Shown: positions 2,736 through 32,560, counted from the stretch's first letter. The stretch: DNA of 64,000 nt from an uncultured Thermodesulfobacteriota bacterium (GCA_964566035.1 CAZMHH010000001.1:21130-85129); one strand, 5' to 3'. Notes: generated by a model from the sequence alone, not told the origin. Translations and numbers: made by a program.

Positions 2736-3329
2736 ATGAAAAAACTTTTAAGCGGTATGTTTATTCTTACAGCAATGTTGTTTGGCTTTACACCGGGCTG
2801 TATTCCCATTGAGCCTAACTATGAAACAGTAACAATCGGAAAACAAGTCTGGATGGCAAAAAACATTAATATTGAAACCGGAAACAGTTGGTGTTATGAC
2901 AATGACCCTCGCAACTGTGAAATATATGGAAGGTTATATGACTGGGAAACAGCAATGAATGTTTGCCCATCCGGCTGGCATCTTCCAAGTTATGAAGAGT
3001 GGACTAAGCTGGTTGACAGTCTTGGTGGTGTGAATTTTGCGGGTAGCAAAATGAAATCAACAGGCACAATCGAAACAGGCACAGGACTGTGGAGTTCTCC
3101 CAATACAGGTGCCACAAACTCAAGCGGGTGGTCAGGTTATCCAGGTGGCTGGAGGGAACAAGATGGCAGTTTCCACAACCTGGAAAAAAGCGGTTTATGG
3201 TGGAGTTCCAGTGAATATATCACATCTGATTCTCATTACCTTCTCCTGAATTATTACGAGGTCATTGTAAACAGATACACCGCCAATAAACAAACCGGTA
3301 TGTCTGTACGTTGTCTCAGGAACTGGTAA
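2736..3329 (+). CDS. Lipoprotein with Fibrobacter-succinogenes-major-paralogous (FISUMP, TIGR02145-like) domain
   Basis: Signal peptide with lipobox (FTPGC). Conserved YGRLYDWETA..CPSGWHLPS.EEW..L and WWSS motifs are shared with the ORFs at 15276 and 19023. Confidence 0.6.
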   Translation: MKKLLSGMFILTAMLFGFTPGCIPIEPNYETVTIGKQVWMAKNINIETGNSWCYDNDPRNCEIYGRLYDWETAMNVCPSGWHLPSYEEWTKLVDSLGGVNFAGSKMKSTGTIETGTGLWSSPNTGATNSSGWSGYPGGWREQDGSFHNLEKSGLWWSSSEYITSDSHYLLLNYYEVIVNRYTANKQTGMSVRCLRNW

Positions 3330-4208: not shown

Positions 4209-5093
4209 CTATTGATTATATTCTCTAACAGCCCTTGTAAGATACGATATCGTTTTATATCCGTAATGATTCTGACCAGTAAAAATTTGGCTTTGAGCAA
4301 AGCCCAAAAAATAAATATGGCATGCGGCATAGGTAAACTGCTCATATGTTGTTGACGACCAGTAATACCATGATCTTGTATTGGAAAAAAAATCAGTATT
4401 TATTGCCGGATTAAACCGATATCTATTCTGTATTGTTTCAAGCTCATCACATGTTGGCATCCTCCAGTCTGTCCATCCGCCAAAAGCTGACTCATTCACA
4501 GCCTCGATAAATCGCTCGGTATTTTCTCCATCCCCCCATTCTCCTGGGTCTCCACCGTTTGTTTCAGGATTGGCATCATACCATGTATAAACATTATCAG
4601 CATCATGGGGGTTTGAATAATTAATAACATAATCCCTGTCCCGTTTCACTTCCCATAACAAACCTGTTGTTACATCATATACCATTGCCCATTGTGCTGC
4701 ATCCTCATTAAGTTGCTCCCCTCTGTCATCAATTTTTATAAACCGGGAACTGCTGATATTAAGCCTGACTGAATCAGAACCTACAACCTGGTTGTATGAA
4801 TCCGTAACCATAAGGGTGACAATATATTGACCCTTACGATCAAATGAATAAACCATATTATCTGAATTTCCACCAGCACCGTCTCCGAAATCCCATCTGT
4901 ATTTATACCCTGCATCAGAATCACCTTCAAGATATATTTCGCATTCAAAACTGATTAACTCTCCCCCTGAATAAAAAGCATTGTTTAAAGGTGAAATAAT
5001 CCTTACCGTTTGTGTTTCACAGCAACAGCAATACAGACAAAAAAAGGCTGACAAAACAGCAAGTAGTGTGCCTGAGTTTTTTTTAGTGTTCAT
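4209..5093 (-). CDS. Lipoprotein with C-terminal DUF1566 (Lcl C-terminal-like) domain
   Basis: Signal peptide with a Cys-rich lipobox region. C-terminal WRMPT.DEL and YWSST motifs are typical of DUF1566. Confidence 0.45.
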   Translation of the reverse strand: MNTKKNSGTLLAVLSAFFCLYCCCCETQTVRIISPLNNAFYSGGELISFECEIYLEGDSDAGYKYRWDFGDGAGGNSDNMVYSFDRKGQYIVTLMVTDSYNQVVGSDSVRLNISSSRFIKIDDRGEQLNEDAAQWAMVYDVTTGLLWEVKRDRDYVINYSNPHDADNVYTWYDANPETNGGDPGEWGDGENTERFIEAVNESAFGGWTDWRMPTCDELETIQNRYRFNPAINTDFFSNTRSWYYWSSTTYEQFTYAACHIYFLGFAQSQIFTGQNHYGYKTISYLTRAVREYNQ

Positions 5094-7410: not shown

Positions 7411-8841
7411 TTAAAATTCAAGCTGAAAACGTGTAATAAAAGAATTTTCAACTGCACGGTAGTAGGAATAACCCTTCCAGCTTGTTCCGAGAAACAAAGG
7501 AGACGAAAATTTTGTCCGGCTGTATTCAAACGTTATTCGCATCATGCTGTTAAGATACCAGTTCAGATTTGCTGTAATTGAATATGCCTGTCTTACGCTG
7601 TAACCTTCATGCACCAGATACTCATAAACAATCCGCTCTGCCTCAAAATCAGCATATCTGAACGCAACCCCGAAGGCCCCCCAGTCTCTCTGTTTGATAT
7701 CAAAGCTTCTCCTTGGTCTTATTTTTTTTAACACACCTCCTTTCATTTCCGGTTTCTCTCCTGTTAACATCAAAAGAAAGCCTGCATACCAGCTTCTGAC
7801 ATAGAAATCAAAAGGGTCTGTATTGGCAAGCTTGACCCCGTCATAGCTGTTCTCAACAAATTCACCCATCAGCAGCAATGGCCCCAGTGTATATGCGGCC
7901 TCAAGACCGTATCTCTGCATACTGTCAACCTGCTGGGTAATATTGAATTTTGCTCTTGCCTGGACAGTAAAAAAGGCTGTTCTGGCAGGGGTTCTTACCT
8001 TGAAATTAAAATCAGAAGTATCAAGCCTTGCATAAGAATACCCGCCGCCCAGATGAAGTCCTCTAAGAAACCAGATATTTGTCTTATAGAATGGTCTTAA
8101 TACAATACGCCCTGTATATTCCTTATCCTTTTTTTGACTTCTTCTCTGAGCATCACGACCGTCTCCGTTAAACATGCCCAGACCGTAATTTACTGTTTCA
8201 CCTAAAAGTTTGCCGTGAAGCATAACCCCAACATCCCGTTCAGGCGTAAGATAGTAGATAAAAGATCTTTCATTAAACGGGAGATATTTATCCGATATGA
8301 GATGTTCCAGGCTAAAAGGTTCCTTGAACTGTCCGACCCTGAGCTGAATTTGCGGAAAATAGTCAAAATTCAAATAAGCATCAATCAGTCTGTTTGAACT
8401 GCCTCCCTCAAGTTCCGCTTCAAGTTTATAGGTAAAGTAATTATAAATCCTGCCCTTTGAAAAAAGCCTTGCCCGCCTGATATCAAAGTCATTTCTCACC
8501 GGATAGCTCTTTCCGAAAACAAGGCTGTCAGCCTGAATGACACCGCCGATAGTTGCTTCAAAGGTTTTATTATCCGTTGCAAAATGGACCCCTTCATCAT
8601 AGAAGATATCAACCTTCTTCTGCCCGTCTTTCAATTTTAAGGTTTCTCTGCTTTGGGCAATCTCCGCACTTTCAGCTCTTTCCTCGTCAAGGATATGCTG
8701 AATATCCCGAACCTGCTCCTCTGTCAAAGCGCCGTTTATCTTTAAATATTCGAGCAGTTTTTCATCAGCAAGGGGACCGGAAAAGACAGAGGAGGGTAAT
8801 AAATATATAGCCAATAATATAGTTAAATAAAGTTTTTTCAA
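7411..8841 (-). CDS. Outer-membrane porin, phosphate-selective porin O/P-like family
   Basis: Signal peptide, beta-strand amphipathic pattern and a C-terminal aromatic residue (…RFQLEF). Preceded by tandem riboswitch-like leaders. Confidence 0.55.
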   Translation of the reverse strand: MKKLYLTILLAIYLLPSSVFSGPLADEKLLEYLKINGALTEEQVRDIQHILDEERAESAEIAQSRETLKLKDGQKKVDIFYDEGVHFATDNKTFEATIGGVIQADSLVFGKSYPVRNDFDIRRARLFSKGRIYNYFTYKLEAELEGGSSNRLIDAYLNFDYFPQIQLRVGQFKEPFSLEHLISDKYLPFNERSFIYYLTPERDVGVMLHGKLLGETVNYGLGMFNGDGRDAQRRSQKKDKEYTGRIVLRPFYKTNIWFLRGLHLGGGYSYARLDTSDFNFKVRTPARTAFFTVQARAKFNITQQVDSMQRYGLEAAYTLGPLLLMGEFVENSYDGVKLANTDPFDFYVRSWYAGFLLMLTGEKPEMKGGVLKKIRPRRSFDIKQRDWGAFGVAFRYADFEAERIVYEYLVHEGYSVRQAYSITANLNWYLNSMMRITFEYSRTKFSSPLFLGTSWKGYSYYRAVENSFITRFQLEF

Positions 8842-8956: not shown

Positions 8957-9120
8957 CAATAAAAAAGCCGGGCTCCTTTTTTTCGGAAAAGAAGACCGGC
9001 TTATATCCAGTCATTTAACTCCTTTCCAAATTCAGGAGGCTAAAAGGCTTTCGCCTCTGCCCTTTCGACCGCGCTCCATAGGCTTAATTTATGCCTTTAG
9101 GAGAAAACAGCTCGGAGTCA
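8957..9120 (-). promoter_or_regulatory. Candidate riboswitch, copy A (aptamer about 9019-9120 plus intrinsic terminator 8957-9002) in the leader of porin gene 7411..8841
   Basis: On the minus strand it reads 5' CUCCGAGCUG…GCGCGGUCGAAAGGGCAGAGGCGAAAGCC…CCUCCUGAAUUUGGAAAGG. The terminator is AAGCCGG…CCGGCUU followed by U6. It is homologous to copies B to E. Confidence 0.5.
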
Positions 9121-9218
9121 GTCATTATTCATTGATGAGACTGCTGTTCATCTCTTGATATTAATGCATCATGTTAATTCCTGTTGCTTTAATGGATTAT
9201 ATACCTGCCCTTATACAA

Positions 9219-9381
9219 ACAAAAAAAGCTACTGCCCTGTCTGGAAAGGCAATAGCTTTTTAAATATGTATATTAAAAGCAGTTTTCCCTTTCCAAACAC
9301 GGGAGGTAAAGCCCTTTCGGATTTTACCCTTTCGGCTGCATTCTCATGGCATAAATTGCTTTAGAGATACCAGCTTGGGAA
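9219..9381 (-). promoter_or_regulatory. Candidate riboswitch, copy B (aptamer about 9285-9381 plus 12-bp terminator 9226-9259 and U7), tandem with and upstream of copy A
   Basis: The minus strand reads UCCCAAGCUGG…GCAGCCGAAAGGGUAAAAUCCGAAAGGGCUUUACCUCCCGUGUUUGGAAAGGG. Then comes the stem AAAGCUAUUGCC/GGCAGUAGCUUU followed by U7. Confidence 0.5.
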
Positions 9382-9452
9382 TTATTTATAATAATGTATA
9401 GCACGTTGAGTTTAAATAGTCAAGTTTTTTTAACTTTTTTTCTGTATTGGCA

Positions 9453-10283
9453 TCATCCTTTATAAATAATAGTGCCAACATGTTCTCCCTCAAGGGCTTT
9501 TGTTAAATTACCCTCTTCAAGCCCGTTGATGATCTGAATACTGTCCATGACCTCGCTGTTCATCAGAATATCCAGACAGGGTCTTTCAATAATCAGGTCG
9601 TCGAAATCTCTCTCAATAAGTTCATTGACGCTAATTGTAGGAATAAATTCAGCACTATCATTTTTTTTTGGATCATCAGAATAAAGCCCATTCTCATCTT
9701 TAACCATTATACACTGTTTTGCTCCGATTAAATTGGCAAGCAGAACAGTACCGGCATCGGTGCGGTGTTGAGGAACTCGTCCGTCTTTTGATGGGATTGA
9801 AAAGAAATCATACGGTGGCATGCCCTGCATCACCGGAATGCAGCCCTCTGCAAAATAAGTATAGAGCCTGATAATCTCATGCTCATCTATGCAGATTCCG
9901 CCATGTGTAGAAAGAAGCATCGACAGCAAAAGCGCATTCTGCTCCGACACAGAGCTTCCAAATTTGGCAATCACGCCTGTAGGCATGCCCATTTCAATTC
10001 CGATGGCATAAATATGCCTGCTGCGGGTCCCTCCCCCTGTTGTAATAAGCATCTTGTGCTTCTTTTTGCACTCGGCAATCTCTTTTATAATCTTAGGCAG
10101 TGCCTTAACCCCCCTGTCACAGATGGACTGCCCGCCTATCTTAAGCACTGTCACATCCGGAAACAGTCTCTGCTGTGGCGAATATTCCAAACCCTTGAGG
10201 AAAGTTTTACTGATAAGGCTTTCTCCCATAAGACGGCTCTTAACATGAAGTCGCCGCCCGTCTTTATCTCGAACAAGTGACAT
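9453..10283 (-). CDS. Amino-acid-kinase-fold protein (UMP kinase / molybdenum-storage-protein MosA/MosB-like)
   Basis: VLKIGGQS motif of the amino acid kinase family. Last gene of the Mo/W transporter operon. Confidence 0.55.
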   Translation of the reverse strand: MSLVRDKDGRRLHVKSRLMGESLISKTFLKGLEYSPQQRLFPDVTVLKIGGQSICDRGVKALPKIIKEIAECKKKHKMLITTGGGTRSRHIYAIGIEMGMPTGVIAKFGSSVSEQNALLLSMLLSTHGGICIDEHEIIRLYTYFAEGCIPVMQGMPPYDFFSIPSKDGRVPQHRTDAGTVLLANLIGAKQCIMVKDENGLYSDDPKKNDSAEFIPTISVNELIERDFDDLIIERPCLDILMNSEVMDSIQIINGLEEGNLTKALEGEHVGTIIYKG

Positions 10284-10314
10284 AGTATATTATCCCTATT
10301 GTTAAATAAACGGC

Positions 10315-10527
10315 TTACTTTTCACTGCAGCCGTCCTTAAGCGGCTCTGCTTTCAAAAACACAAGTTCAGCGCCTACTTCCTGTGCAATGGTCTCAATCT
10401 CTTTTTTTCGGAAATGATCCGCATATACCGAAAGATCCACATCGCTTACGGCAACAATCCGGAAACGGGGCTTTTTCTCCCCCTTGTCAACCTTAAGCCT
10501 CTCTCTGTAAAATATTTTTCCTGCCAT
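10315..10527 (-). CDS. Small hypothetical protein (70 aa)
   Basis: Sits in the operon between the kinase-fold gene and the ABC ATPase. No motif recognised. Confidence 0.3.
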   Translation of the reverse strand: MAGKIFYRERLKVDKGEKKPRFRIVAVSDVDLSVYADHFRKKEIETIAQEVGAELVFLKAEPLKDGCSEK

Positions 10528-10683: not shown

Positions 10684-11724
10684 CTACATAGCCCAAAGGG
10701 AGCGAAGTTTAAGAATGCCGTGCACCGTCTGCCCCTGCCGGACATTCAGGGCATCAAAGTGCTGCAGTGCCATCTCAACACGCAGGGATTCGGAATCGAC
10801 CTTCAACAACACATGGACAGACTCGCCTGCTATGCTGATATCCGTGATAACCCCTTCAAACCTGTTGATTGGTGGACCAGGGGCTCTACATCCGGAAATA
10901 TATACATCATAGGGAAGAATCGCCACCCGGTTTACGGGTCTGCCTTCATCAGGTATCAGCAGTTTGATTCCTGCCCATTGAACCTCAACCAGTCCGTTAT
11001 CCAGTGATACACAGCTTTTGCATGTCAGCACATTGGGTTTTTCAAGAAACCCCTGCCCATGAGTCATAGGCGCATGCATGACATCCTCTGTTTTCCCGAC
11101 ACTCTCTATCTTCCCCTCATTAATCACTGCGATGCGATCAGCCAGTTCCCGTGCCTCGGCAAGGTCATGGGTGACAAAAAGCGTGGTCACCCCGAGCTTC
11201 TTCTGCTGTTTCTTAAACTCCTGCCGAAGATACCGGGATGTTCTGAAATCCAGCCCTGAAAACGGTTCATCCAGCAGCAAAATTTCAGGCTTGCACGCAA
11301 CCGCCCTGGCAAGCGCAACCCGCTGTTTCTCTCCGCCACTCAGTTTGTCAGGGTAGCGGTTCCGCAGGGATTCTATCCTGAAAAGCGACAAAAGCTCTTC
11401 TGTCCGGGAAAGATTTTCCTTAAGGTTTTTTTTTGTCGGTTTGAGAGCAAGCATCAGATTCTGTTTGACCGTTAAATGGGGAAAAATCAGTTTATCCTGA
11501 AACACATAGCCCACCCTGCGGCGCTGTGCCGGCAGCCGGTCAACCGGTGTGCCGTAAAACAAAACACTGCCGATGTAAGGGGCAAGCCCTGCCACAACAT
11601 TGAGAAGGGTTGTTTTGCCCGCACCCGATGGACCAACCATTACAAGAAGCTCTCTGTCGGCAATCTCGAGACTTACCCTGTTCAGGACATAGTTGCTGAT
11701 CTCTTTAAACATAATTCCGGACAT
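10684..11724 (-). CDS. modC: ABC transporter ATP-binding protein, molybdate/tungstate type (ModC/WtpC-like) with C-terminal MOP/TOBE domain
   Basis: Walker A GPSGAGKTT, ABC signature LSGGEKQRVALAR, Walker B LLLDEP, and a C-terminal about 130 aa TOBE-like domain. Confidence 0.75.
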   Translation of the reverse strand: MSGIMFKEISNYVLNRVSLEIADRELLVMVGPSGAGKTTLLNVVAGLAPYIGSVLFYGTPVDRLPAQRRRVGYVFQDKLIFPHLTVKQNLMLALKPTKKNLKENLSRTEELLSLFRIESLRNRYPDKLSGGEKQRVALARAVACKPEILLLDEPFSGLDFRTSRYLRQEFKKQQKKLGVTTLFVTHDLAEARELADRIAVINEGKIESVGKTEDVMHAPMTHGQGFLEKPNVLTCKSCVSLDNGLVEVQWAGIKLLIPDEGRPVNRVAILPYDVYISGCRAPGPPINRFEGVITDISIAGESVHVLLKVDSESLRVEMALQHFDALNVRQGQTVHGILKLRSLWAM

Positions 11725-12521
11725 TATACCCCTCCAGCAACAGTCAAAGCATTTTTCCTTGATCTGCCCAGCATTTTAATGATTAGCAGGAGAGCAAACC
11801 CGCTCATCAGAAGCAGCCAGGCACATGCCAGCGCCAGTCCCAATTCACCGCTGCTGATATTGAGATATACTGAAACCGGCAGCGTTGCGGTCTTGAAACG
11901 AGTTGCGCCCGCAACCATCAGCGTAGCGCCAAACTCACCCAGCGCCCTTGCCCAGGCAAGCACAGCGCCGGTTAAAATCCCCTGCCATGCCAGAGGCAGG
12001 GTAATATACATGAAAATCTGCCATCTTTCAAGCCCGAGCGTAAGCCCTGCCATTTCATACCGATCGTTCACCCCCTCAAAAGCAACTTTTGAACTTCTGA
12101 TAACAATCGGAAGACAGATAAATGTCTGCGCAACAATTGCCCCGAGCGGTGTAAACACTACATGAATGCCCAGACGAAAAAGACTTCCCCCCAGCCAGTC
12201 CTGTCCGAATAGAAACAGAAGCCCGATACCCGCAACAAGAGGTGTCATAACCAGCGGCAGATCAAGCAGGGTATCAATAACCGGTTTAAACGGAATTTTA
12301 CGCCGAGCCAGTATGTATGCAGACGGAACACCAAGCAGAAGCGATGCAACCACCGCAGCAAGTGATGTCAGCAGGCTGAGTCTTAAAGCAAAAAGGGTCT
12401 CCTTTGAGCTCAATGCCCTAACGATTTCCACAGGAGAAACATGAAACAGGATTGCCGCAAGCACGCCGCAAACAAACAGTGTAGAAACTATTAAAGGAAT
12501 CACTATTAAAAATCGTTTCAT
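11724..12521 (-). CDS. modB: ABC transporter permease, molybdate/tungstate type (ModB-like)
   Basis: Six-TM profile and EAA-like loop (GATRFKTATLPVSV). The stop overlaps the start of the ATPase gene. Confidence 0.7.
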   Translation of the reverse strand: MKRFLIVIPLIVSTLFVCGVLAAILFHVSPVEIVRALSSKETLFALRLSLLTSLAAVVASLLLGVPSAYILARRKIPFKPVIDTLLDLPLVMTPLVAGIGLLFLFGQDWLGGSLFRLGIHVVFTPLGAIVAQTFICLPIVIRSSKVAFEGVNDRYEMAGLTLGLERWQIFMYITLPLAWQGILTGAVLAWARALGEFGATLMVAGATRFKTATLPVSVYLNISSGELGLALACAWLLLMSGFALLLIIKMLGRSRKNALTVAGGV

Positions 12522-12603
12522 AGATCAAAAGTTAGAAGATGTAAGAAACTATATACGGGTTGTAATGTAAAATAAAATACTGCTTGATAATTAAAATACC
12601 CTG

Positions 12604-13326
12604 TTATGCAGACCTGCTGCAAAACCGCTCCCATCCCATGAGATGCGCCGCTCCGGCTATAGTTGTGCCATAAAAAATAGTCGGTTTTGCTGATAAAAAG
12701 CTGGTGATAGTATCATTGACCAGCACGGTTCCGGTAACAAGCAGAATATCCGCCCATTCAACAGCCTCATCTGTTTTTTCAGGTCCCTCGATAGATATTC
12801 CGAATTTTTCTGTCCCGATATTTTGTTTATCCATATCCAGCACCCGGATGTTGAAGATAGATGAGAGAGATTCAATCATTCGGGGCTGAAATCCAATCTG
12901 TGTTATTTTTACAATTCCATAATGCTCGCTGATATATTTGGTCAGAACATTTGCACACTCCTTCGGAGATTCATCCTTACAATGAACCGTGCCTTCTATC
13001 AAGCCCAGACTTCGCAGCACCGCATTCAGCGTTGCCACAAACAGAGCCCTTCTGAAATTGTTTCGAAGCTCCATTTTTAAGACATCATTGATACTCCCGC
13101 TGAAATCTCCATAATGATCGGTAAATGCCTGCCCGAAAGCCCCTTTGAAATCCGCCTGCATCAGGAATTCTTTGCCCTGCTGCAGTGGAAAATCCTTATC
13201 TTCCGGATCACCTATGGCTTCCTTTATTGTCAATGCCCGCGCGGTAACTGTAATATGTTCATCTGAAAGATTATTCCTTAAACACACTTCCCTCAGTTTT
13301 TGTCTCAGTATTTCATAAATATCCAT
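12604..13326 (-). CDS. DUF364/DUF4213-like Rossmann-like domain protein (putative metal-chelation fold)
   Basis: Paralog of 13604..14380 (…ILLVTGTVLVN…). The likely start is the internal MDIYEIL codon, which has a good RBS. The ORF track extends it to 13356. Confidence 0.45.
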   Translation of the reverse strand: MDIYEILRQKLREVCLRNNLSDEHITVTARALTIKEAIGDPEDKDFPLQQGKEFLMQADFKGAFGQAFTDHYGDFSGSINDVLKMELRNNFRRALFVATLNAVLRSLGLIEGTVHCKDESPKECANVLTKYISEHYGIVKITQIGFQPRMIESLSSIFNIRVLDMDKQNIGTEKFGISIEGPEKTDEAVEWADILLVTGTVLVNDTITSFLSAKPTIFYGTTIAGAAHLMGWERFCSRSA

Positions 13327-13339
13327 AAAATTATTTCCC

Positions 13340-13563
13340 TTCAAGTTAGCTCGCAACTGGTAGCTGGTAATGTAATATAACCTTCGGTTTGCTTCGCATG
13401 TAACCCTGGTGAAACAAAATCATAAAAGGTTTCACAGGACAAGCATGATACATAGCTCATAGTTAAATCAAAACCCTATCGTGGTCGTAATCGTAATCGC
13501 TATCGAAATCGGTATCGGTATCGTTTTATAATGTGTTTCGGTGCGCGCGGCGCAACCTACAAC
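13340..13563. repeat. Composite intergenic repeat block (agctcgcaactggtagctggt; atcgtggtcgtaatcgtaatcg… hexamer-periodic run; GC palindrome ggtgcgcgcggcgcaacc)
   Basis: Sub-motifs recur at 18765-18861 (in reverse orientation), at 24463-24495, and at 30686-30703 (ggtgcgcacggcgcac). Confidence 0.5.
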
Positions 13564-13603
13564 TGCATGTTCCATAAAACAGTGCTGAATGGTGCATCAT
13601 TTT

Positions 13604-14380
13604 TTAGTTGCCCTCCAAAACAAGGTTGACCTTTTTAGAATATTTCATAAAAAACCGTGTGCCGCCCGCCTCACTGACCACACGCAGAATCGCAGGAACA
13701 TCATTAGCCACAACACCTGAAAGATGGGTTATCCCCCGTTTTCTGAAAATACCCGGCACCATCGGTGTAGAAGGACCCAAAACCGCCTTGACCCGGCAGC
13801 CGGATGCATAGTCTGCAAGATGATCAAAGCTTTGGTTGACCAGAGAGGTTGCCGTAATAATTACCACAGAACAGGAAGGCAGGAGTTCACCTGCTTTTTC
13901 TTCAGGATAAAGCCCTTCGGCTCTGGAGATGTTCTTTTCAAAAATAATCAACTCGCCTGCCTGCTGCCGGATGACCGGAACAAGTGGTCCGAAGAAACCG
14001 ACCATGCCGACCCGGTCTTGCTTTGTCAGCGAAACTGCATCCAGAAAATCCCCTTGCAGGCTCTTAAAATCCTGCTGCAGTTTCCTTATTTCATCCGGGG
14101 TATTTAACAGCGCATTTGCAGCCGCCAGTCCGACCCCCCTCTCAAGCATCGACGCCGAAGACATATATGGCAACACATCCCGAACCGGGCTTCCGGCAAC
14201 AGGTCTTTTCCCCTGAAATACTGTACACCCTGTTTCCAGCACATCTCGAACCGTGCCGGCAAGCCCGACACTGCCGGTATCAAGCTGCACAGCCGTATAG
14301 CCCAAGCCGATCCGGACATCTGCAACCTTTATATCACTCGCTTTTTCAAGGGCAGCGGCGGTTACGTCTTCAAGGATCAT
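13604..14380 (-). CDS. DUF364/DUF4213-like Rossmann-like domain protein, first gene after riboswitch copy C
   Basis: Likely start MILEDVT at 14380, with RBS AAAGGGGA. Contains a VIITATSLVN Rossmann-like motif. The ORF track extends it to 14476, into the terminator hairpin. Confidence 0.45.
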   Translation of the reverse strand: MILEDVTAAALEKASDIKVADVRIGLGYTAVQLDTGSVGLAGTVRDVLETGCTVFQGKRPVAGSPVRDVLPYMSSASMLERGVGLAAANALLNTPDEIRKLQQDFKSLQGDFLDAVSLTKQDRVGMVGFFGPLVPVIRQQAGELIIFEKNISRAEGLYPEEKAGELLPSCSVVIITATSLVNQSFDHLADYASGCRVKAVLGPSTPMVPGIFRKRGITHLSGVVANDVPAILRVVSEAGGTRFFMKYSKKVNLVLEGN

Positions 14381-14412: not shown

Positions 14413-14592
14413 AAACAAAAAAAGCCCCTGCCTTATAAATCTGTGGATGAAAAAGGCAGGGGCTTGGCTTAGGCAAAAACCACTGTTGTTTGAGTCCCTA
14501 TCCAACCACGGGAGGCAAAGCCCTTTCGGGTATTGCCCTGTCGGCTGCATTTCATAGACTATTATAGCCGTTAGAACTGACAGCTTTGGGAG
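14413..14592 (-). promoter_or_regulatory. Candidate riboswitch, copy C (aptamer about 14493-14592, 12-bp terminator 14424-14465 plus U-run) in the leader of the DUF364/ModBC operon
   Basis: The minus strand reads CUCCCAAAGCUG…GCAGCCGACAGGGCAAUACCCGAAAGGGCUUUGCCUCCCGUGGUUGGAUAGGGA. Then comes AGCCCCUGCCUU…AAGGCAGGGGCU followed by U7, 30 nt before the RBS. Confidence 0.55.
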
Positions 14593-14675
14593 TTTTTAAT
14601 CATTTTAATACGCTATTTGATTATAATATGATTATCAACATATATTTAACGCTTGACAGATTCATATTTTTAGCA

Positions 14676-14704
14676 TATTATAATCTAATAATAATTACTT
14701 GTCA
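14676..14704 (-). promoter_or_regulatory. Sigma70 consensus promoter (TTGACA-N17-TATAAT) driving the copy-C leader
   Basis: The reverse complement of 14676-14704 is TTGACAagtaattattattagatTATAAT. Confidence 0.5.
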
Positions 14705-14742
14705 ACTCTATTTGTAGTTTTTTTAAAATTAAAAATAATGCA

Positions 14743-15195
14743 GTGATGAAAACAATCAGAGAAGCGTTACATACTATTAAAAAAATCAGGGGATTTAAAA
14801 CTGACGCTGATCTTGCAGAGGATATGGACATATCACTGAACACCATGAGAAGCTGGATTAGAAACGAATCTATTACAAAACAGATCATTGCCTACTGCGC
14901 AAAACATAACATAAGCATTGATGAAACCCTGCTTGATATCCGCATTTTTAACAAAGACCGCTGCGAGCTTTGCGCTGCAAGACTGCAATGCGATGAATAC
15001 CGCAGAGCCACCAGCAATTCGCTGGTCGTTAACGAGGATATGTTCAGCCCCAAAACAATCCTGATCAACACGCATCTGACGGAAAGTATCTCATGGAAAA
15101 TGTTTCAACAGAATATCCTCAAATCAGAATGTGCCTTTGACCTTGAATTGATAGACAGAATACTGATTGAACTGCATCAGACGACTTTGGATTAG
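14743..15195 (+). CDS. Putative HTH protein (phage CI-repressor-like N-terminal HTH)
   Basis: The N-terminal 60 aa resemble the CI-repressor HTH (…DADLAEDMDISLNTMRSWIRN). Divergent from the riboswitch-C promoter. Confidence 0.35.
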   Translation: MMKTIREALHTIKKIRGFKTDADLAEDMDISLNTMRSWIRNESITKQIIAYCAKHNISIDETLLDIRIFNKDRCELCAARLQCDEYRRATSNSLVVNEDMFSPKTILINTHLTESISWKMFQQNILKSECAFDLELIDRILIELHQTTLD

Positions 15196-15275
15196 TGCGC
15201 TATGAATGGTTTTTTTTTTTTAAATGTATTTTTTTTATATAAACAAAAGTTGATTACATTTATTTCGGAGGCATT

Positions 15276-15878
15276 ATGAAAAAAGAGTTGTTTATTTTAG
15301 CGATAATATGGTCCTTGTTATTTGCAATGGGCTGCGATCCCACCTATACTGACACCAGGGACGGACAGGTCTATAAAACTGTAAAAATAGGAAGTCAATG
15401 GTGGATGGCTGAAAACATGAATTACGAAATGGATAACAGTTGGTGCTTTGAAGACGAACAGGGTAACTGCGACACCTATGGCAGGTTATATGCGTTTGAA
15501 ACAGCGCTCACTGCATGCCCTTCAGGATGGCGTCTGCCAGACAATAAAGACTGGAACATCCTAATCGACTATCTGGGAGCCATAGAAACTGCGGGCGGCA
15601 GGATGAAGGCTACAGGAACCCTTCAGGATAGCTCCGGTTACTGGCTAAAACCGAATACAGGAGCCACAAATGAAAGCGGATTTTCAGGTTTGCCGGGTGG
15701 CTCACGCAGCGGCTTTGGACATTTCAACCGGTTGGGAAGCGACGGCTACTGGTGGAGCGCTACAGACAACCAGGGGGGTAGCGCCATACTGTGGCGGCTG
15801 AGTAACAGAAGCAGCAGCATATCCGAGGACAGCTACCTGAAACAATACGGACTTTCTGTGCGCTGCATCAGGAATTAA
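15276..15878 (+). CDS. Lipoprotein with FISUMP domain (paralog of 2736 and 19023)
   Basis: Lipobox LLFAMGC and YGRLYAFETA..CPSGWRLP motifs. Confidence 0.6.
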   Translation: MKKELFILAIIWSLLFAMGCDPTYTDTRDGQVYKTVKIGSQWWMAENMNYEMDNSWCFEDEQGNCDTYGRLYAFETALTACPSGWRLPDNKDWNILIDYLGAIETAGGRMKATGTLQDSSGYWLKPNTGATNESGFSGLPGGSRSGFGHFNRLGSDGYWWSATDNQGGSAILWRLSNRSSSISEDSYLKQYGLSVRCIRN

Positions 15879-15928
15879 GAACAATTATTGTTAGTGGTTT
15901 ATGTTCAATGAGTTATGATTGAAACCGG

Positions 15929-16744
15929 TTAATGCTTATTTTGTCCAAGCCTCAAAAAACCGAAACTTTCAAACACTGCAACCGCTTCTTCTGATGCAAG
16001 ATACTCCTGCAATGCAGTGGCGGCGTCAATATTTTTTGTAGCTGAAAGCACGGCAGCCGGCACAATCTCTTCATCATAATATTTATCAGCAATCACAATC
16101 ATTGCTACACTCTCACTGAACTGAAAAGCGTCTGCTCGTCCAACAATGGAAGCATCCACAACGCCTTGAGAAACGTACATTGCAAGCTGTTTTACCGTCG
16201 CGCCGTAAACGACAACATTAGCCTCAACCCCCTCCATAATCCCAGCCCGCTGAAGAATGGTCTGAGCAGTTTTCCCAAACGCCATCGCTTGAGAATCACC
16301 CAGCGCCAGTCTAAGTCCGGGCTTTGCCAGATCATGTAGAGATTTAATCTCCCCCTCTTTTGATCTGTTTACAGCAATGACCGGCGTATGCGAAACAACA
16401 GGTTTCCAGCTCACAATTTTGCCCTGCTCATCTAACTGCTGTATATAGATAAATGAACCCGGCAGAAAAACATCACCTGTGCCGGAAACGGTTATTTTTG
16501 TCATCAGTTTCCCGCTCCCGGCATAATCCACTATAACAACGTGCCCTGTTTTTTTCTGAAAAATCTCCATAAGCCGGTCAACCGGATGTCTCAGCCCAGC
16601 CCCGGCATACAGGCGCAACTCCGCGGCAACAGAAGCTGTCGCATTAACCGACAGGTAAAGCATCAAAAGGGCGCAAACACCGGTTAAAATGAATCTTGTC
16701 ATAGGGGCAGCGCCCGACTGTTTTTTTCTAATTTTATTTCTCAT
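15929..16744 (-). CDS. modA: Molybdate/tungstate ABC transporter periplasmic binding protein (ModA/WtpA-like)
   Basis: Signal peptide and PBP type-2 fold motifs (YAGSGKL, GDVFLPG). The likely start is MRNKIRKK with RBS GGAGGA. The ORF track extends it to 16822, overlapping the porin gene. Confidence 0.6.
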   Translation of the reverse strand: MRNKIRKKQSGAAPMTRFILTGVCALLMLYLSVNATASVAAELRLYAGAGLRHPVDRLMEIFQKKTGHVVIVDYAGSGKLMTKITVSGTGDVFLPGSFIYIQQLDEQGKIVSWKPVVSHTPVIAVNRSKEGEIKSLHDLAKPGLRLALGDSQAMAFGKTAQTILQRAGIMEGVEANVVVYGATVKQLAMYVSQGVVDASIVGRADAFQFSESVAMIVIADKYYDEEIVPAAVLSATKNIDAATALQEYLASEEAVAVFESFGFLRLGQNKH

Positions 16745-16776
16745 AGAATACTGTCCTCCATCGTTTACTTGTTCTA

Positions 16777-18216
16777 TCACAGGAGCCCTTTGCTGAACCG
16801 GTATTCCCACTGAACAAAGCACCAGTTTGCCGGTCGATTGGACGCCATTGTTTTGGCAAACGTATCAGGCCAAAACCGCCCGAATCCTGCCATGACCCTG
16901 TTGCCGTACGGCAGTCTGAGCGTTGCGACAACATCAAACTCTTTGCCCACGCTTTTTCCGCTGCTGCCCGTCCTGTCCCGGTATATCTGCTGGTTCAGGT
17001 ACCAGGCATCCTTCCGTTCAGCAAGCATAAACTTATGAAATTCAAATTTTATATCAAGCCACGATGCCGGACTGAGCTCAATATTTGCCTGCAAATCCTG
17101 AAGGTTCATCCAGTGAAACAGATTCATCCTGCCATACATCTGATCCCTTGCGCCAAAGGCGCCATGAAAGGTTCGGCACACCCCGTCATCGGGATTGTCA
17201 TCTCCTGAAGCGTAACTGTATTCTATGCTCAACCGGGGGTTAAACCTCATCGGAAGATTGTATGCCAACATCAGGTGATAACCGTATGCCCTCAGGTTGT
17301 CTTTTGCGAAATCGCCCCGTTCCTGAAGCAGTGTCGCGTCAAAATCAAAACGCTTGATATTTTTGCCGGAAATTCTCACCCCCGCATACCATGAATCAAG
17401 TGCGCCCTGCTTTCGATAAGTAACACGGCTGCCGTCGGGCTGAAGATAGTAACCCTGCTTTTCCCCCCTGTAACGTCGATGATGGTCTCTTTTGGTAAAC
17501 ACCATCGGTTCGACCGATATCTCAAAGGTTTTCTGTAGAACATCATACCTGGCATAAAGACCGATGCTCTCAAATTCATGTCGATGCCTCAGACTGAACC
17601 TTTGGACATCATGGAGCATATTGCGGCCGTAATAGATATCAACAAACCCCCGCTGATGCTTCCATGATATCTTGGCGGCATCCCAAATATAACGCCCTGA
17701 ATTGCCCCACTGACCGGGCCCAAACACCCGGTTGTTGCCGTAGGCGATTAACTGTCTGCCTATTTTAAAACCAAGCCCTGCATCAAATAGATTTTTAACC
17801 TCGATAAATGTCGTATAGAGTTCCCAGTAATCCTTGTTCGGGTTGTTCTCAAATTGATGGGTATTGTTGTAAAACGCTGAATCCGGCAGTGCGCTGCCCC
17901 AGCAGGTGGAATGCTGTCCCCACAGGGCAATATGTATTTTATCGGTCGGATACCAGTCCACCCCCGCCCTGAAGCGTCCCAGCAGAAAACCGTCATCAGT
18001 TTTTCCCCTTGCAGGTCTTTCCCCGTAGTATTTCTGATTGAAATTATCATAAAATTCATACCTCAGCCGGAGATTTGAACTAAATGTGAGTCTCTTTTTT
18101 TCTGTTTCGCATGCGGACTGCTGTTTTGCCTGAAGCAAAGATGAACAGAGCAGCAACATGGCCATTAAAAAAATTACTGAACAGATTTTTTTTACTATAT
18201 TACATTGTGCCTTCAT
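16777..18216 (-). CDS. Outer-membrane beta-barrel porin (alginate-export/putative porin-like), first gene after riboswitch copy D
   Basis: Signal peptide, alternating amphipathic strands, and a C-terminal …RFSKGLL. Immediately upstream of modA-like. Confidence 0.5.
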   Translation of the reverse strand: MKAQCNIVKKICSVIFLMAMLLLCSSLLQAKQQSACETEKKRLTFSSNLRLRYEFYDNFNQKYYGERPARGKTDDGFLLGRFRAGVDWYPTDKIHIALWGQHSTCWGSALPDSAFYNNTHQFENNPNKDYWELYTTFIEVKNLFDAGLGFKIGRQLIAYGNNRVFGPGQWGNSGRYIWDAAKISWKHQRGFVDIYYGRNMLHDVQRFSLRHRHEFESIGLYARYDVLQKTFEISVEPMVFTKRDHHRRYRGEKQGYYLQPDGSRVTYRKQGALDSWYAGVRISGKNIKRFDFDATLLQERGDFAKDNLRAYGYHLMLAYNLPMRFNPRLSIEYSYASGDDNPDDGVCRTFHGAFGARDQMYGRMNLFHWMNLQDLQANIELSPASWLDIKFEFHKFMLAERKDAWYLNQQIYRDRTGSSGKSVGKEFDVVATLRLPYGNRVMAGFGRFWPDTFAKTMASNRPANWCFVQWEYRFSKGLL

Positions 18217-18240
18217 ATTTTTCCTTTATCTTGCCAGATA

Positions 18241-18410
18241 TAAAAAAAAACGCTGCCTTATCTATCGGTGGAAGAACATGGCAACGGCTTTAATAAAAAC
18301 CCCTGTTGCGTGAATCCCTATCCAACCACGGGAGGCAAAGCCCTTTCGGACAAAGCCCTGTCGGCTGCTCCTCATGGGCTGTTATGACCGTTAGAAGAAA
18401 ACAGCTTCAG
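18241..18410 (-). promoter_or_regulatory. Candidate riboswitch, copy D (aptamer about 18313-18410, terminator 18251-18287 plus U9) in the leader of the porin/modA unit
   Basis: Nearly identical to copy C through the CCGACAGGGCUUUGUCCGAAAGGGCUUUGCCUCCCGUGGUUGGAUAGGGA core. A 7-bp stem and U9 lie just before RBS AAAGGAAAAAU-ATG. Confidence 0.55.
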
Positions 18411-18505
18411 AACCTACAATCAGTTTATGCTACTAAAGTATTATATTTTGACTATTAATATCCATATAAAATTCCATTCAGTCACATTATGCTAAATTGT
18501 AATCT

Positions 18506-18534
18506 AATATTAATCACCTGTCAACTCTTTTTTT
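18506..18534 (-). promoter_or_regulatory. Sigma70-like promoter (TTGACA-N17-TACAAT) driving the copy-D leader
   Basis: The reverse complement is TTGACAggtgattaatattagatTACAAT. It lies in the same position as the copy-C promoter within the 250-bp duplicated block. Confidence 0.45.
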
Positions 18535-18834
18535 GAAAATAATTGAAATTGATTTATTTAATTGATCTTCCTGCTGGATACAGGTAACATTGCGCCGATT
18601 GAATTGATTTAAAACGAGGGCAATTTTAGTGACTTAAAAGTTATTTTTTTGCATTATCTGGCAAAAAATATTTCAGTGGAGGGAAATAGCCTTGAAAACA
18701 GGAGACAGAAGTCAGAGGTCAGCTTTCAGGTATCAGCAAAAAACAGGAGTCAGAGCAATAGCAAAAACCGACTACGATCACGACCACGAAAGGGTTTTGC
18801 TGACAACTGATACCTGACAGCTGCTTATTGCTAC

Positions 18835-19022: not shown

Positions 19023-19877
19023 TCAATTTTTGATACACCGCACAGATCCGGCATAAATTTTGTGGGCAATACCCCTGTGAATCTCAGCGTTAAAATAACG
19101 CAGCACCCTGAAATAGGAAAAATCCACACCATTATCGTTCGAACACCACCAGTAACCGTCAATACCAATCCCGTAAAACTCCCCGCCGGGGTAACGTCTG
19201 CCGCCGGGCAGTCCTGAAAACCCGCTTGAGTTGACCCCCGATGTATTGGGGGATTCCCATAGTCCCGTGCCGCCCTGCAGGGTTCCTGCTGCCTTCATCC
19301 TGCCGCCTGCAATACTTTCTCCCCCAAGATAATCTGCCAGCAGGTCCCACTCCACGTCAGACGGCAGGTGCCAGCCTTCAGGACAGGCATCTGTTGCGTT
19401 TTCCCAGTCATAAAGTCTGCCGTAGAGCAGACAGTTATCATCTGTTTCGTCATAGCACCAACTGTTCTGAATGCTGTAATTTAAATTTTCCGCCATCCAG
19501 AGCTGAGACCCGATTCGTATGGTTTTATATGTCCTGTCATCCCTAGGATCGGTCATTTCTCCGTAATCCGGCTCAGGATAAACTATCTGCTCAAAGTTTG
19601 CAATCAGCACCCGGCTGTGGAACACTGTGAAGGTGTAATTCGCATTTGTTGTCAAAATCTGATCATCTTCTGTCCAGGAAACAAACCGATATCCTTCAGA
19701 AGGTATGGCAGACACGCTAATCTCACTTATTCTTTCAAACAGACCGCCGCCCTCTACCCTCCCCCCTTCCTCAGGACGGGCAATAAGGGTAATCTCCAAA
19801 GGCTCATCCGGTTCACAGCCTGATGCAAACAGGAAGAGTGTCAGCAGAATTAAGAATATACAAGACTTGGTTTTCAT
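19023..19877 (-). CDS. Lipoprotein with FISUMP domain (paralog), longer N-terminal region
   Basis: Lipobox LFASGC and YGRLYDWENA..CPEGWHLPS motifs. Confidence 0.6.
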   Translation of the reverse strand: MKTKSCIFLILLTLFLFASGCEPDEPLEITLIARPEEGGRVEGGGLFERISEISVSAIPSEGYRFVSWTEDDQILTTNANYTFTVFHSRVLIANFEQIVYPEPDYGEMTDPRDDRTYKTIRIGSQLWMAENLNYSIQNSWCYDETDDNCLLYGRLYDWENATDACPEGWHLPSDVEWDLLADYLGGESIAGGRMKAAGTLQGGTGLWESPNTSGVNSSGFSGLPGGRRYPGGEFYGIGIDGYWWCSNDNGVDFSYFRVLRYFNAEIHRGIAHKIYAGSVRCIKN

Positions 19878-24459: not shown

Positions 24460-24562
24460 CTGATGGTAGCTCGTAGCTCATAGCTCGTAGCTGGTGGCAA
24501 AAGCAAAAAAAAACAACTGCCCCGGACAGCCATTTTATTGGTTCCGGATTGTCCTGGTTAGG
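24460..24562. repeat. Composite intergenic repeat block (gtagctcgtagctcatagctcgtagctggtgg plus R element copy 2)
   Basis: The hexamer-periodic tagctNgtagct run is related to 13345-13372 and 18848-18861. The R element matches 18850-18885 and 30915-30958. Confidence 0.5.
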
Positions 24563-25272
24563 TGCTATAAAAACGTAAGCAGAACCGTTTCGTATCAAAC
24601 ACGCATGTTTTCATAAACCGTTGGGCTGCCGACAGAAAGCATTACCCGGGACTAAAGCATCATTTAATCATTATCTACAGTTTACAGAGGATATGAAATA
24701 GAGTCAATAGAATGCAGATTCAGGACTAAACAAAGCCATAATGTCTTTTAACTGCAAATGGATAATGTCACCTCAATGCTTGGCACATTAATTTTTGGTA
24801 TGCATTTTGGAGCGGGAATAAAGAATGACGATTCGGAAAATCTTTTTGTTTTGAACGAATGAAAGAGACTGCGAGAGTGATATCTGTAACATCCTGTAAC
24901 TGCTTTTACATTACCCCGGTTTTGGCTGATAATCTTTTGAGTCCAGCTCTTCTCGGGATTAAACAAAAAAAACGGAGCAGAAGCGGAATGTCTGACAACT
25001 GCAATCAGATTTTGTTACAAGCCATTTACCTGCATGCTAAGACAAAGTCATGCTTAAATTTGGCGTAGCTAACAGCTTTTTTGCTCATCAGCTTAATATC
25101 TCATTTGATTATCAGCTCTTTTGGGGATAGATATTTTTTTGCTTCTTACTAAGTTGTCAAGAATTAAATAATAATCCTATTTAAATCGCATAGTGCGACG
25201 TAATAAGTTGATCATCCTGCAAAAGCTCGAAAAAAAGACCTGTGAACAATTCCATTCATCTGGGTCGGATAG

Positions 25273-29982: not shown

Positions 29983-30899
29983 TTTGTTTCCTCCTTAATC
30001 GTTTTTGATTTGGGTATTTACATAGATTCCATTAGCGGCTTACCTGTTTTATTGCCCTACACTTTATGCAACAGTCATCACCCCCTTTCGAGCGTAAACA
30101 CAACCATCATTATCTCATTATCTTTATTCAAGCCGCATTTATAGTAGTGAATAAAAAATACCTATGTCAGTCTTATTTATTTTAAATAGGATTTCGGGTG
30201 ACGACAATAATGGTTCAGGACAGTTATCAACAAGGTGATTATGTCCCCTGACTTTGGCGTTCAATAGATACTCCTTGACTTATGCACATTCCATACGGAC
30301 ACACTGACACCAGTCAATTAAAGGGGGTTCAGATATGATGGACCTGTAAAAAGTCTAAAAAGCTCCCCCTCTCCCTGAAATGAACTGATAATTTCCGCTC
30401 CTGGCTGGATCAAGCTGTTAAGGAAATGCACAAAAACAGGCTAAAGCTGAAGATATGACGTAACTACTCAGCCCATAGACGATCAGTTTGCCCTGTCAAA
30501 GGTTTCTTCAAAGCAAAAGAGCATAATTTTTATCACCTCACCAAGCCCCGGGAAGAGCTATTAAGCAAAGGCAATAAAAACAGCTGTCGACTTCCAGCAA
30601 AGGGGTTTTTTATGTTTAAGGCGTAAGCCTTTTATCGGTTTTGCTGACATCTGGCTGCTGATAGCTGACAGCTCCTTTTTATTCGGTGCGCACGGCGCAC
30701 TATCCCTTACCGCTTCCCTCTTACTTAAATCTTAAAACCTAAAACTTTATTATTACCCTTACCCCTCCTGTTTTTATTAATCCTTCATCCTTTGTTTCCC
30801 CCGCCTGCCCCATGAAACCTTCATTGATTCTGTTTCATTGGGGTTACCCTCTTTTGCTTTTGTTTAACAGGGGCCTGCCCTGTTAAATCTGTTTTGATT

Positions 30900-32376: not shown

Positions 32377-32403
32377 TTAAAATAAATATTAAATATACTT
32401 ATC

Positions 32404-32560
32404 TCCAAGCCGTTGTTTTCTAAGGTCACAGAGACTATGATGCGCGGCCGAAAGGGTTTTGTTCGAAAGGACACTGCCTCCCGTGGCTGGAAAGGAGAAT
32501 AGGCACAGGAATTATAAAAGACCTGTCCCCGGTTCTGCCGCGGACAGGTCTTTTTTTTGG
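32404..32560 (+). promoter_or_regulatory. Candidate riboswitch, copy E (aptamer 32404-32505, 10-bp terminator 32519-32551 plus U8) in the leader of the MoCF_biosynth-domain gene
   Basis: The plus strand reads CUCCAAGCCG…GCGCGGCCGAAAGGGUUUUGUUCGAAAGGACACUGCCUCCCGUGGCUGGAAAGGAG. Then comes AGACCUGUCC…GGACAGGUCU followed by U8 and RBS GAAAGGGAAAAU-ATG. Confidence 0.55.

Follow-up and report, generated by a model that had tools for sequence, protein, structure and literature searches.

In a 64,000-nucleotide stretch of DNA from an uncultured Thermodesulfobacteriota bacterium (GCA_964566035.1 CAZMHH010000001.1:21130-85129), two neighboring transcription units for the transport of molybdenum or tungsten (Mo/W) are each preceded by a copy of RF01055, the molybdenum cofactor/tungsten cofactor (Moco/Tuco) riboswitch (Regulski et al. 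2008; PMC2408646). In the following, "the window" denotes this whole stretch, which has a G+C content of 41.5%, and all positions are counted from its first letter. A covariance-model scan of the window returned five full-length matches to RF01055, termed copies A to E, and copies C and D are the subject of this work. Both aptamers lie on the minus strand in the position of a 5' untranslated region (UTR), C (14603-14479, 50.3 bits, full model 1-135) before DUF364-modB-modC-like genes and D (18424-18298, 40.6 bits, model 1-135) before porin and modA genes; the gathering score of the family is 36, and the score of copy D is close to it. The unit under C (10684..14380, minus strand) consists of a DUF4213/DUF364 gene (14380-13604, DUF364a), a DUF364-like gene (13356-12604, DUF364b), a modB-like gene (12521-11724) and a modC-like gene (11724-10684), and the unit under D (15929..18216, minus strand) of genes for an Alginate_exp-family porin (18216-16777) and ModA (16822-15929), assigned via Pfam PF13372 and PF13531, with an additional match of ModA to TIGR01256 (101.6 bits vs a cutoff of 62.5). 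That the downstream genes differ had already been stated in the initial annotation of this DNA and is correct, as is its remark that a divergent helix-turn-helix (HTH) gene lies immediately beyond the promoter of copy C: this gene (14746..15195, plus strand) encodes 149 amino acids and has a marginal match to PF07022, Phage_CI_repr (24 bits vs a cutoff of 22), and a tblastn search found no relic of it upstream of D. The surroundings of C and D constitute a Mo/W island with genes for a TupA-like binding protein, an amino-acid-kinase-family protein, MobA-like, YqeC and XdhC proteins, two xanthine-dehydrogenase-family enzymes and MoCF_biosynth.

The two riboswitches are parts of a longer duplicated block. 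A single blastn high-scoring segment pair (HSP) joins 14417-14713 with 18242-18532 over 299 columns at 71.6% identity (E 1.4e-37), and the two cassettes thereby delimited, C (14417..14713, minus strand) and D (18242..18532, minus strand), extend from the promoter to the T-run of the terminator. The unit that was duplicated comprises about 295 nt, starting 4 nt upstream of the -35 box and ending at the terminator T-run. A duplicated block of about 250 bp upstream of two Mo/W units had been proposed; the duplication as such is borne out, while its size has to be revised upwards as the terminators are included. Segments of C and D were aligned globally and compared with 1000 dinucleotide shuffles. 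The 120 nt upstream of the promoter have no identity (z 0.0), as the similarity breaks off sharply 4 nt before the -35 box is reached. The promoter block that follows is identical at 29 of 33 positions (z 7.7). The aptamers are 77% identical (z 15.7). For the post-aptamer/terminator segment identity amounts to 61% (z 5.7, a value reached by 0 of 1000 shuffles), so that the two terminators, previously thought to differ, are homologous. With 43 identities in 75 columns (57%, z 2.2, 24 of 1000 shuffles, p about 0.02) the 73-nt leader between promoter and aptamer is the weakest-conserved part of the block when C and D alone are compared, and its significance emerged only once orthologous loci had been added. 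Pairwise alignment therefore carries the similarity beyond the aptamer core into the promoter block and the terminator; of the resemblance once claimed for about 120 nt of 5' leader, the portion covering the promoter block stands and the leader proper is marginal.

This marginal value, together with the fact that AT-rich sequence inflates matches, could be taken to mean that only the aptamers are homologous and that strong sigma70 promoters and AT-rich leaders came to resemble each other by convergence or chance. However, C and D agree at 14 of 17 positions of the promoter spacer and both have AGAG in front of the -35 box, the terminators are homologous and share a derived 5-nt insertion, one continuous HSP (E 1e-37) covers the entire block, and the same architecture is found in eight of eight other lineages retrieved via homologs of the HTH protein. 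In our view the segment tests and the alignment of orthologs refute convergence or chance, and we attach next to no probability to it. There are exactly two occurrences of the 33-nt block AGAGTTGACA...TAYAAT in the window, compared with zero expected. In addition, 11 derived columns are exclusive to C and D, including the insertion in the terminator, and any other pair of cassettes shares at most five, which argues for C and D being old sister copies. Sharp ends, exclusive columns and downstream genes that are orthologous to those of one operon (see below) all support the earlier suggestion that the regulatory module behaves as a unit and was copied or moved as a unit.

The comparison loci are metagenomic contigs that were found through homologs of the HTH protein and represent eight lineages besides the window; where necessary, they are designated by L numbers. 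The class alignment was built from eight HTH-linked cassettes plus D, and positions are called conserved when they are the same in at least seven of the eight. In each of the eight lineages the HTH gene diverges from an operon for molybdate uptake and lies at a fixed distance from the cassette, which in seven of them contains RF01055 in the form that lacks the P3 stem. The riboswitch is then encoded on the other strand, its 5' end and the HTH start codon being about 140 nt apart, compared with 143 nt in C. In the eighth, L018, the HTH gene and the promoter (P1, described below) are present, and RF01055 was not detected even at E <= 1. At 4700-5000 (minus strand) this contig has a TTGACA-N17-TACTAT promoter and a leader with two direct TGATTAT repeats; a terminator-like hairpin of a different kind precedes a 154-residue open reading frame (ORF) and the porin gene. 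The DUF364 gene had also been tried as a route to orthologous loci and was discarded: its nearest homologs (68% identity) reside in another context (TrmO_N-DUF364-Fer4), in which RF01055 gave no match. Pattern scans of two large public collections of genome and metagenome contigs with the degenerate promoter block and with the 20-nt aptamer core likewise resulted in zero matches each.

Contigs with an intact operon show a single uptake operon with porin and/or modA in first place. In L008, L014, L017 and L018 the cassette position drives one operon of the order porin-modA-(small ORF)-DUF364-modB-modC, and in L015 the operon is modA-DUF364-modB-modC. When compared with the single-operon genes of L008, L014 and L015 (for porin and modA those of L008 and L014), the D-unit porin is 65-68% and ModA 50-56% identical, and the C-unit DUF364b, ModB and ModC are 62-64%, 69-73% and 59% identical, respectively. 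The genes of the C and D units are thus orthologous to consecutive genes of one operon, which indicates that the operon was split in this genome, and the comparison shows the ancestral state to have been an HTH gene divergent from one cassette followed by porin-modA-DUF364-modB-modC. Cassette C has kept the ancestral upstream neighbor, the HTH gene, and D the ancestral downstream neighbor, the porin gene. In the split, the porin half would accordingly have kept cassette D and the DUF364 half the HTH-linked cassette C, and since each half keeps a cassette, both would stay under the same control.

The first gene after C, the DUF4213/DUF364 gene at 13604-14380 (minus strand, 258 amino acids), is absent from the ancestral-type operons, and the closest homologs of its product (68%) are encoded in TrmO_N-DUF364-ferredoxin clusters; it appears to have been added where the operon was split. 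The last two genes under the control of C are an amino-acid-kinase-family gene (276 amino acids) and a 70-residue ORF (9453-10527, minus strand), and their counterparts (66% and 58% identity) also close the modABC operon of L011. The kinase-family protein is possibly a candidate for a molybdenum-storage-type protein.

Could the cassette be mobile, or be carried by a mobile element, and insert in front of Mo/W genes? Two observations would fit such a scenario. The cassettes of L007 and L017 are 95% identical and have different downstream genes, and a repeated 31-nt piece of a palindromic element is present at 18769-18799 and 13469-13499, that is in the gap upstream of D and in the DUF364a/DUF364b gap, so that repeats occur at both presumed rearrangement junctions. 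The first of these is better explained otherwise, because in L007 (4425-4658, minus strand) the cassette is followed by no more than a stub, 77 residues from the N-terminus of the porin (68% identity), and next by a rhodanese gene; a rearrangement just 3' of the cassette has truncated the uptake operon. Furthermore, inspection of the block ends revealed neither terminal inverted repeats nor target-site duplications, a search of the 490-nt non-coding gap adjoining D revealed no remnant of a transposase or of the HTH gene, and the absence of matches to the promoter pattern and the aptamer-core 20-mer in the two public collections gives no sign of spread. We therefore regard mobility of the cassette as very improbable. 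The palindromic element itself is imperfect, about 110 bp long (18713-18823) and located in the gap upstream of D; its 31-nt piece is 90% identical, in inverted orientation, to the stretch at 13469-13499, and further pieces are found at 24531-24563 and 30637-30667.

The promoter block of each cassette contains the near-perfect sigma70 promoter on the minus strand that the initial annotation had recognized. In copy C this promoter, P1 (block 14677..14709), consists of AGAG, a -35 box TTGACA (14705-14700), a 17-nt spacer and a -10 box TATAAT (14682-14677) and agrees with the consensus at 12 of 12 positions; in copy D (block 18496..18528) TTGACA (18524-18519) and TACAAT (18501-18496), again 17 nt apart, agree at 11 of 12. 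The pattern TTGAC[AG]-N17-TAnnnT with exactly this spacer length is present in all ten loci, and D retains five of five class-conserved columns in the -35 box, nine of ten in the spacer (where 10 of 17 are conserved) and three of three in the -10 box. A promoter for the HTH gene is predicted in the opposite direction at 14653..14681 (plus strand), with TTGACA at 14653-14658, 17 nt, and TATTAT at 14676-14681 (11/12). Its -35 box, TTGA[AC]A, is kept at the same place in seven of seven loci scanned (window C and six orthologs) and is absent in D. The -10-like hexamer, TATTAT, TAATAT or TACTAT in the best-conserved loci, follows at 17 nt and is read at 18 nt in L014 and L015. In loci with the 17-nt spacer, the two -10 boxes overlap by 5 bp, and each -35 box falls at about +12 to +17 of the opposing transcript. 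With such an overlap and mutual -35 placement, the two binding modes of RNA polymerase should exclude each other.

The distance between the -10 box and the aptamer is 71-73 nt in nine of nine aptamer-bearing cassettes of the class (seven other lineages, C and D). For further Moco copies in these genomes (A, E and two in L014), by contrast, only 2-14 nt separate the end of the best promoter from the aptamer. A long leader therefore characterizes this class and is conserved within it, and its conservation had been recognized in the initial annotation. Three blocks stand out in it. B5 (TGTCAAG, in the region 14653-14658 of C) is conserved in six of seven columns, is also borne by L020, and reads TTGACA or TTGAAA on the plus strand; as it lies 17 nt (18 in L014 and L015) from the -10-like hexamer, it is identified with the -35 box of the HTH promoter. 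At the corresponding position in D (18472-18479) two of the six columns are retained. B6 (GATAATCATATTATAAT in C, 14620..14636, minus strand; class consensus ATAATCAAAATATAAT) is conserved in 12 of 16 columns and carries a -10-like hexamer 16 nt upstream of the aptamer, and its counterpart in D (AATAGTCAAAATATAAT, 18440..18456, minus strand) retains 11 of the 12. B7 (14597..14612 in C, minus strand; class consensus ATCATTAAATGATYA) is conserved in 13 of 16 columns, ten of which are retained in D. The 3' half of this block is the start of the Rfam aptamer model; most orthologs have a 13-nt palindrome in the block, of which C and D show only a degenerate form. Taken together, D retains 38 of 43 class-conserved columns of P1, B6 and B7 vs two of six in B5 (hypergeometric p about 0.007, computed by hand from the column counts). 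The decay of B5 in the cassette that has no HTH gene and the retention of B6 and B7 make D a natural deletion experiment, according to which B5 is predicted to serve the HTH gene and B6 and B7 the riboswitch unit. The long leader would then be mainly a DNA-level feature, with the HTH -35 box sitting inside the riboswitch leader. Conservation without covariation, the embedded promoter element and the riboswitch-less ortholog that keeps P1 all point to constraints at the level of DNA.

The initial annotation had gone further and proposed that the functional RNA extends into the leader, an idea for which specific structures can be drawn: a P0 helix between B6 (UAAUCA) and the aptamer 5' end (UGAUYA), i.e., B6:B7, which was proposed by RNAalifold, or an AUCAU/AUGAU hairpin formed by the B7 palindrome, either of which might modulate formation of helix P1 of the aptamer. 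Both helices form in 91-93% of sequence-by-pair cells (B7 helix: 91%) vs 6-64% when the partners are slid, the minimum free energy (MFE) folds of L007 and L017 lengthen helix P1 via an AUGAUC segment, and B6 and B7 persist in D despite the lack of an HTH gene there. Covariation, however, does not exceed that of shuffled alignments for either helix, as the observed score is reached by 301 of 500 shuffles for B6:B7 and by 500 of 500 for the B7 palindrome; the columns are simply conserved in sequence, while the true helices of these RNAs covary. Moreover, the two helices compete for one 3' strand, C as well as D has a degenerate version of the palindromic half of B7, and the other Moco copies in the same genomes manage with 2-14 nt between -10 box and aptamer. 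This part of the original claim is therefore not upheld, and we judge an RNA function of the leader unlikely.

A different role for B6 deserves somewhat more credit, although we lean against it: its TATAAT hexamer may be the -10 element of a proximal, activator-dependent promoter P2 without a -35 box, in which case promoters would be arranged in tandem and the leader would be present only in the transcript from P1. The conservation of the hexamer fits a -10 element (A2 is invariant, T6 occurs in seven of eight), it is about as far from the aptamer as are the sole promoters of A, E and two copies in L014 (L014b and L014c), it coincides with the -10 boxes of A and E in a MAFFT alignment, and it is retained in D. 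On the other hand, a -35-like hexamer at 16-18 nt and a TG extension are missing, L011 has TATGAC and L020 AATAAT at this place, the flanking ATCAAA, not required by a -10 element, is as conserved as the hexamer itself, and P1 is already near-consensus. The tandem arrangement would be compatible with the DNA-level interpretation of the leader.

Three further candidates in this region were rejected. An operator consisting of an inverted repeat, TTTTGATTAT in the P1 spacer and ATAATCAAAA in B6, about 51 bp apart, is to be ascribed to AT-rich chance in nine of ten loci, and the 10-mer in question is common in the window (29 matches vs 16 expected). The 14-codon ORFs seen by eye in the leaders of C and D do not qualify as leader peptides, as they differ in frame and stop and have no Shine-Dalgarno sequence. 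Finally, a 10-codon ORF starting from the ATG in B7 lies in the aptamer, has CTG in D and was judged to be chance.

Downstream of the leader, structure is well supported by compensatory changes. RNAalifold applied to eight cassettes gave 54 pairs, 13 of them with compensatory changes, located in aptamer and terminator. At the 3' end of every cassette there is a hairpin (-14 to -29 kcal/mol) with a U-run after it. In C the terminator (14417..14465, minus strand) has arms at 14465-14453 and 14434-14422 and a T7 run at 14423-14417 (-26.1 kcal/mol, then U7), and in D (18242..18286, minus strand) arms at 18286-18280 and 18257-18251 are followed by T9 at 18250-18242 (-14.0 kcal/mol, U9). An antiterminator, exclusive with the terminator, can form when the apical part of the terminator and its 3' arm pair with the P4 3' strand and the P5 hairpin. 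Its pairs are possible in 88.4% of cells vs 45-55% with partners slid, and four compensatory pairs with nine doubly changed cells were reached by 0 of 500 shuffles. For six of nine cassettes, among them D but not C, it is the MFE structure of the 3' half. Single-sequence folds of the full transcripts were uninformative (C: z -4.7, driven by aptamer and terminator; D: z -0.9). From what is known of the family (PMC2408646), the cofactor-bound aptamer would permit the terminator to form and transcription would stop before the transport genes, whereas the free aptamer would be unfolded by the antiterminator, such that the element would probably act as a ligand-dependent OFF switch through termination.

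The general picture that emerges is that C and D are old sister cassettes under which the halves of an operon were split, and that their long leader is mainly a DNA-level feature, a reading to which we assign a probability of roughly 70%. A number of points weigh against it. The overall identity of C and D is 74%, no closer than that of either to the orthologs, which implies that the duplication is old, and gene conversion between the two is possible. Insertion sequences, transposases or HTH relics were not found at the fission junctions. P1 is a predicted promoter of the riboswitch unit by virtue of its consensus match. The repeat formed by TTTTGATTAT and B6 is no better within loci than between loci and exhibits no within-locus co-variation. 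The synteny sample was drawn via HTH homologs and consequently links gene and cassette in one direction only, from the gene to the cassette; all ortholog loci are metagenomic contigs. Lastly, a DNA-binding role of the HTH protein is suggested by the marginal Pfam match (24 vs 22 bits) and synteny.

The HTH protein belongs to a rare family. About 20 homologs share 61-70% identity and nearly all have 149 residues, and among 1.84 billion clusters at 50% identity the family has six full-length representatives, other matches covering the HTH only. Four cysteines, C51, C73, C76 and C82, form the motif C-x21-C-x2-C-x5-C in the C-terminal half and are invariant down to 34% identity. Neither an S24 peptidase/dimerization domain nor a Mop or TOBE domain was detected, as Pfam and NCBIfam gave no match beyond residues 7-60. 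A profile search of the PDB retrieved only a psq-type HTH (2elh_A, 4.7e-5), and in the AlphaFold2 model, in which the predicted local distance difference test score averages 63.6 over the whole protein and is mostly below 50 at residues 84-131, only the N-terminal HTH is confident. Strict synteny and the architecture of overlapping promoters lead us to infer that the protein is a candidate local regulator of the shared promoter region, which would act in trans on D, where promoter spacer and B6 are kept. More tentatively, and with the odds against it, it may represent an undescribed family of Mo/W-uptake regulators that forms a two-sensor module with the riboswitch, one gate being the promoter and the other the RNA, with B6 and B7 as operators and D as a second target in trans. 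If true, such a module could combine, for example, a metal, redox or Fe-S signal with a cofactor signal. If the protein is Mo/W- or redox-responsive, the locus would provide a compact model of protein and RNA sensing of one nutrient pathway, and an uncharacterized protein family would gain a function.

Genes of the Fib_succ_major type occur three times in the window (2736-3329, plus; 15276-15878, plus; 19023-19877, minus), share 44-51% mutual identity and each adjoin a Mo/W gene or cassette, namely the TupA-like gene, cassette C with the HTH gene, and cassette D. Those beside C and D probably do not belong to the duplicated segment, as their identity is about 50%, a value also found for the third paralog, and they have opposite orientations. 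The HTH gene of the orthologous loci is followed by a gene for a PF27704 methyltransferase-like protein and not by Fib_succ_major. Among the other riboswitch copies, A (9392-9270, minus strand, 82 bits) and B (9129-9002, minus strand, 53 bits) are tandem aptamers (9002-9392), each with a hairpin and then a T-run, located between the amino-acid-kinase-family gene (9453-10283) and a Porin_O_P gene (7411-8841). Copy E (32391-32513, plus strand) and its MoCF_biosynth gene are flanked by two paralogous proteins of about 400 residues (30900-32165, minus; 33617-34831, plus) that are 38% identical and have HTH_29/HTH_32 N-termini; a 412-residue counterpart is encoded at the equivalent place in L014, and they may be conserved partners rather than transposases.

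The riboswitch and its occurrence in multiple copies per genome are already known, with eight copies in D. hafniense, at least 15 in S. wolfei, and tandem Moco RNAs in S. wolfei and G. metallireducens (PMC2408646). The P3 stem separates Moco-type from proposed Tuco-type RNAs, those without P3 having been linked to the tungsten cofactor (PMC2408646). The P3 positions of the model are deleted in the alignments of all five window copies, which places them in the P3-less subclass of RF01055. The gene context is mixed, comprising the modA equivalog match and xanthine-dehydrogenase-family Mo enzymes as well as sub-threshold TupA-like and WtpC-like matches, so that the ligand may be either the Mo or the W cofactor. 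The cassettes share with described Moco/Tuco RNAs full-length covariance-model matches above the gathering score, the same covarying helices, the association with molybdate/tungstate transport genes and an intrinsic-terminator platform, and they differ in the fixed distance of 71-73 nt with its conserved blocks and in the consistent divergent HTH gene. What is new is the architecture of the module. An operon fission in which an entire promoter-to-terminator cassette was duplicated and the halves remain co-regulated would be one novel aspect. A second is the previously unremarked, conserved pairing of a P3-less riboswitch with a small four-cysteine HTH gene via overlapping divergent promoters, for which a full-text literature search found no describing publication, itself weak evidence of absence. 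The third is that the regulator-less copy D separates leader elements serving the HTH gene, which have decayed, from those of the riboswitch unit, which are retained.

The closest parallel for two layers of control is the E. coli moaABCDE operon, in which ModE- and FNR-dependent promoters are combined with a Moco RNA (PMC2408646). Both there and here a transcription-factor layer at the promoter would be joined to a Moco riboswitch in the 5' UTR of a Mo-related operon. In E. coli, however, the factor is ModE, an HTH protein with Mop/TOBE domains that is encoded elsewhere, and the riboswitch acts on translation, whereas the candidate factor in the window is a 149-residue four-cysteine HTH protein without Mop/TOBE, its gene is divergent with an overlapping promoter, the riboswitch would act by termination, and control by the protein is inferred. 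Divergent pairs of an autoregulated regulator gene and its target with overlapping promoters are familiar from tetR/tetA of Tn10 and from many LysR-type regulators. As in these pairs, regulator and target at cassette C would be expressed from overlapping promoters, so that one short region can control both; in contrast to them, the target transcript bears a riboswitch, a second, regulator-less copy of the promoter would be served in trans, and the operator is putative.

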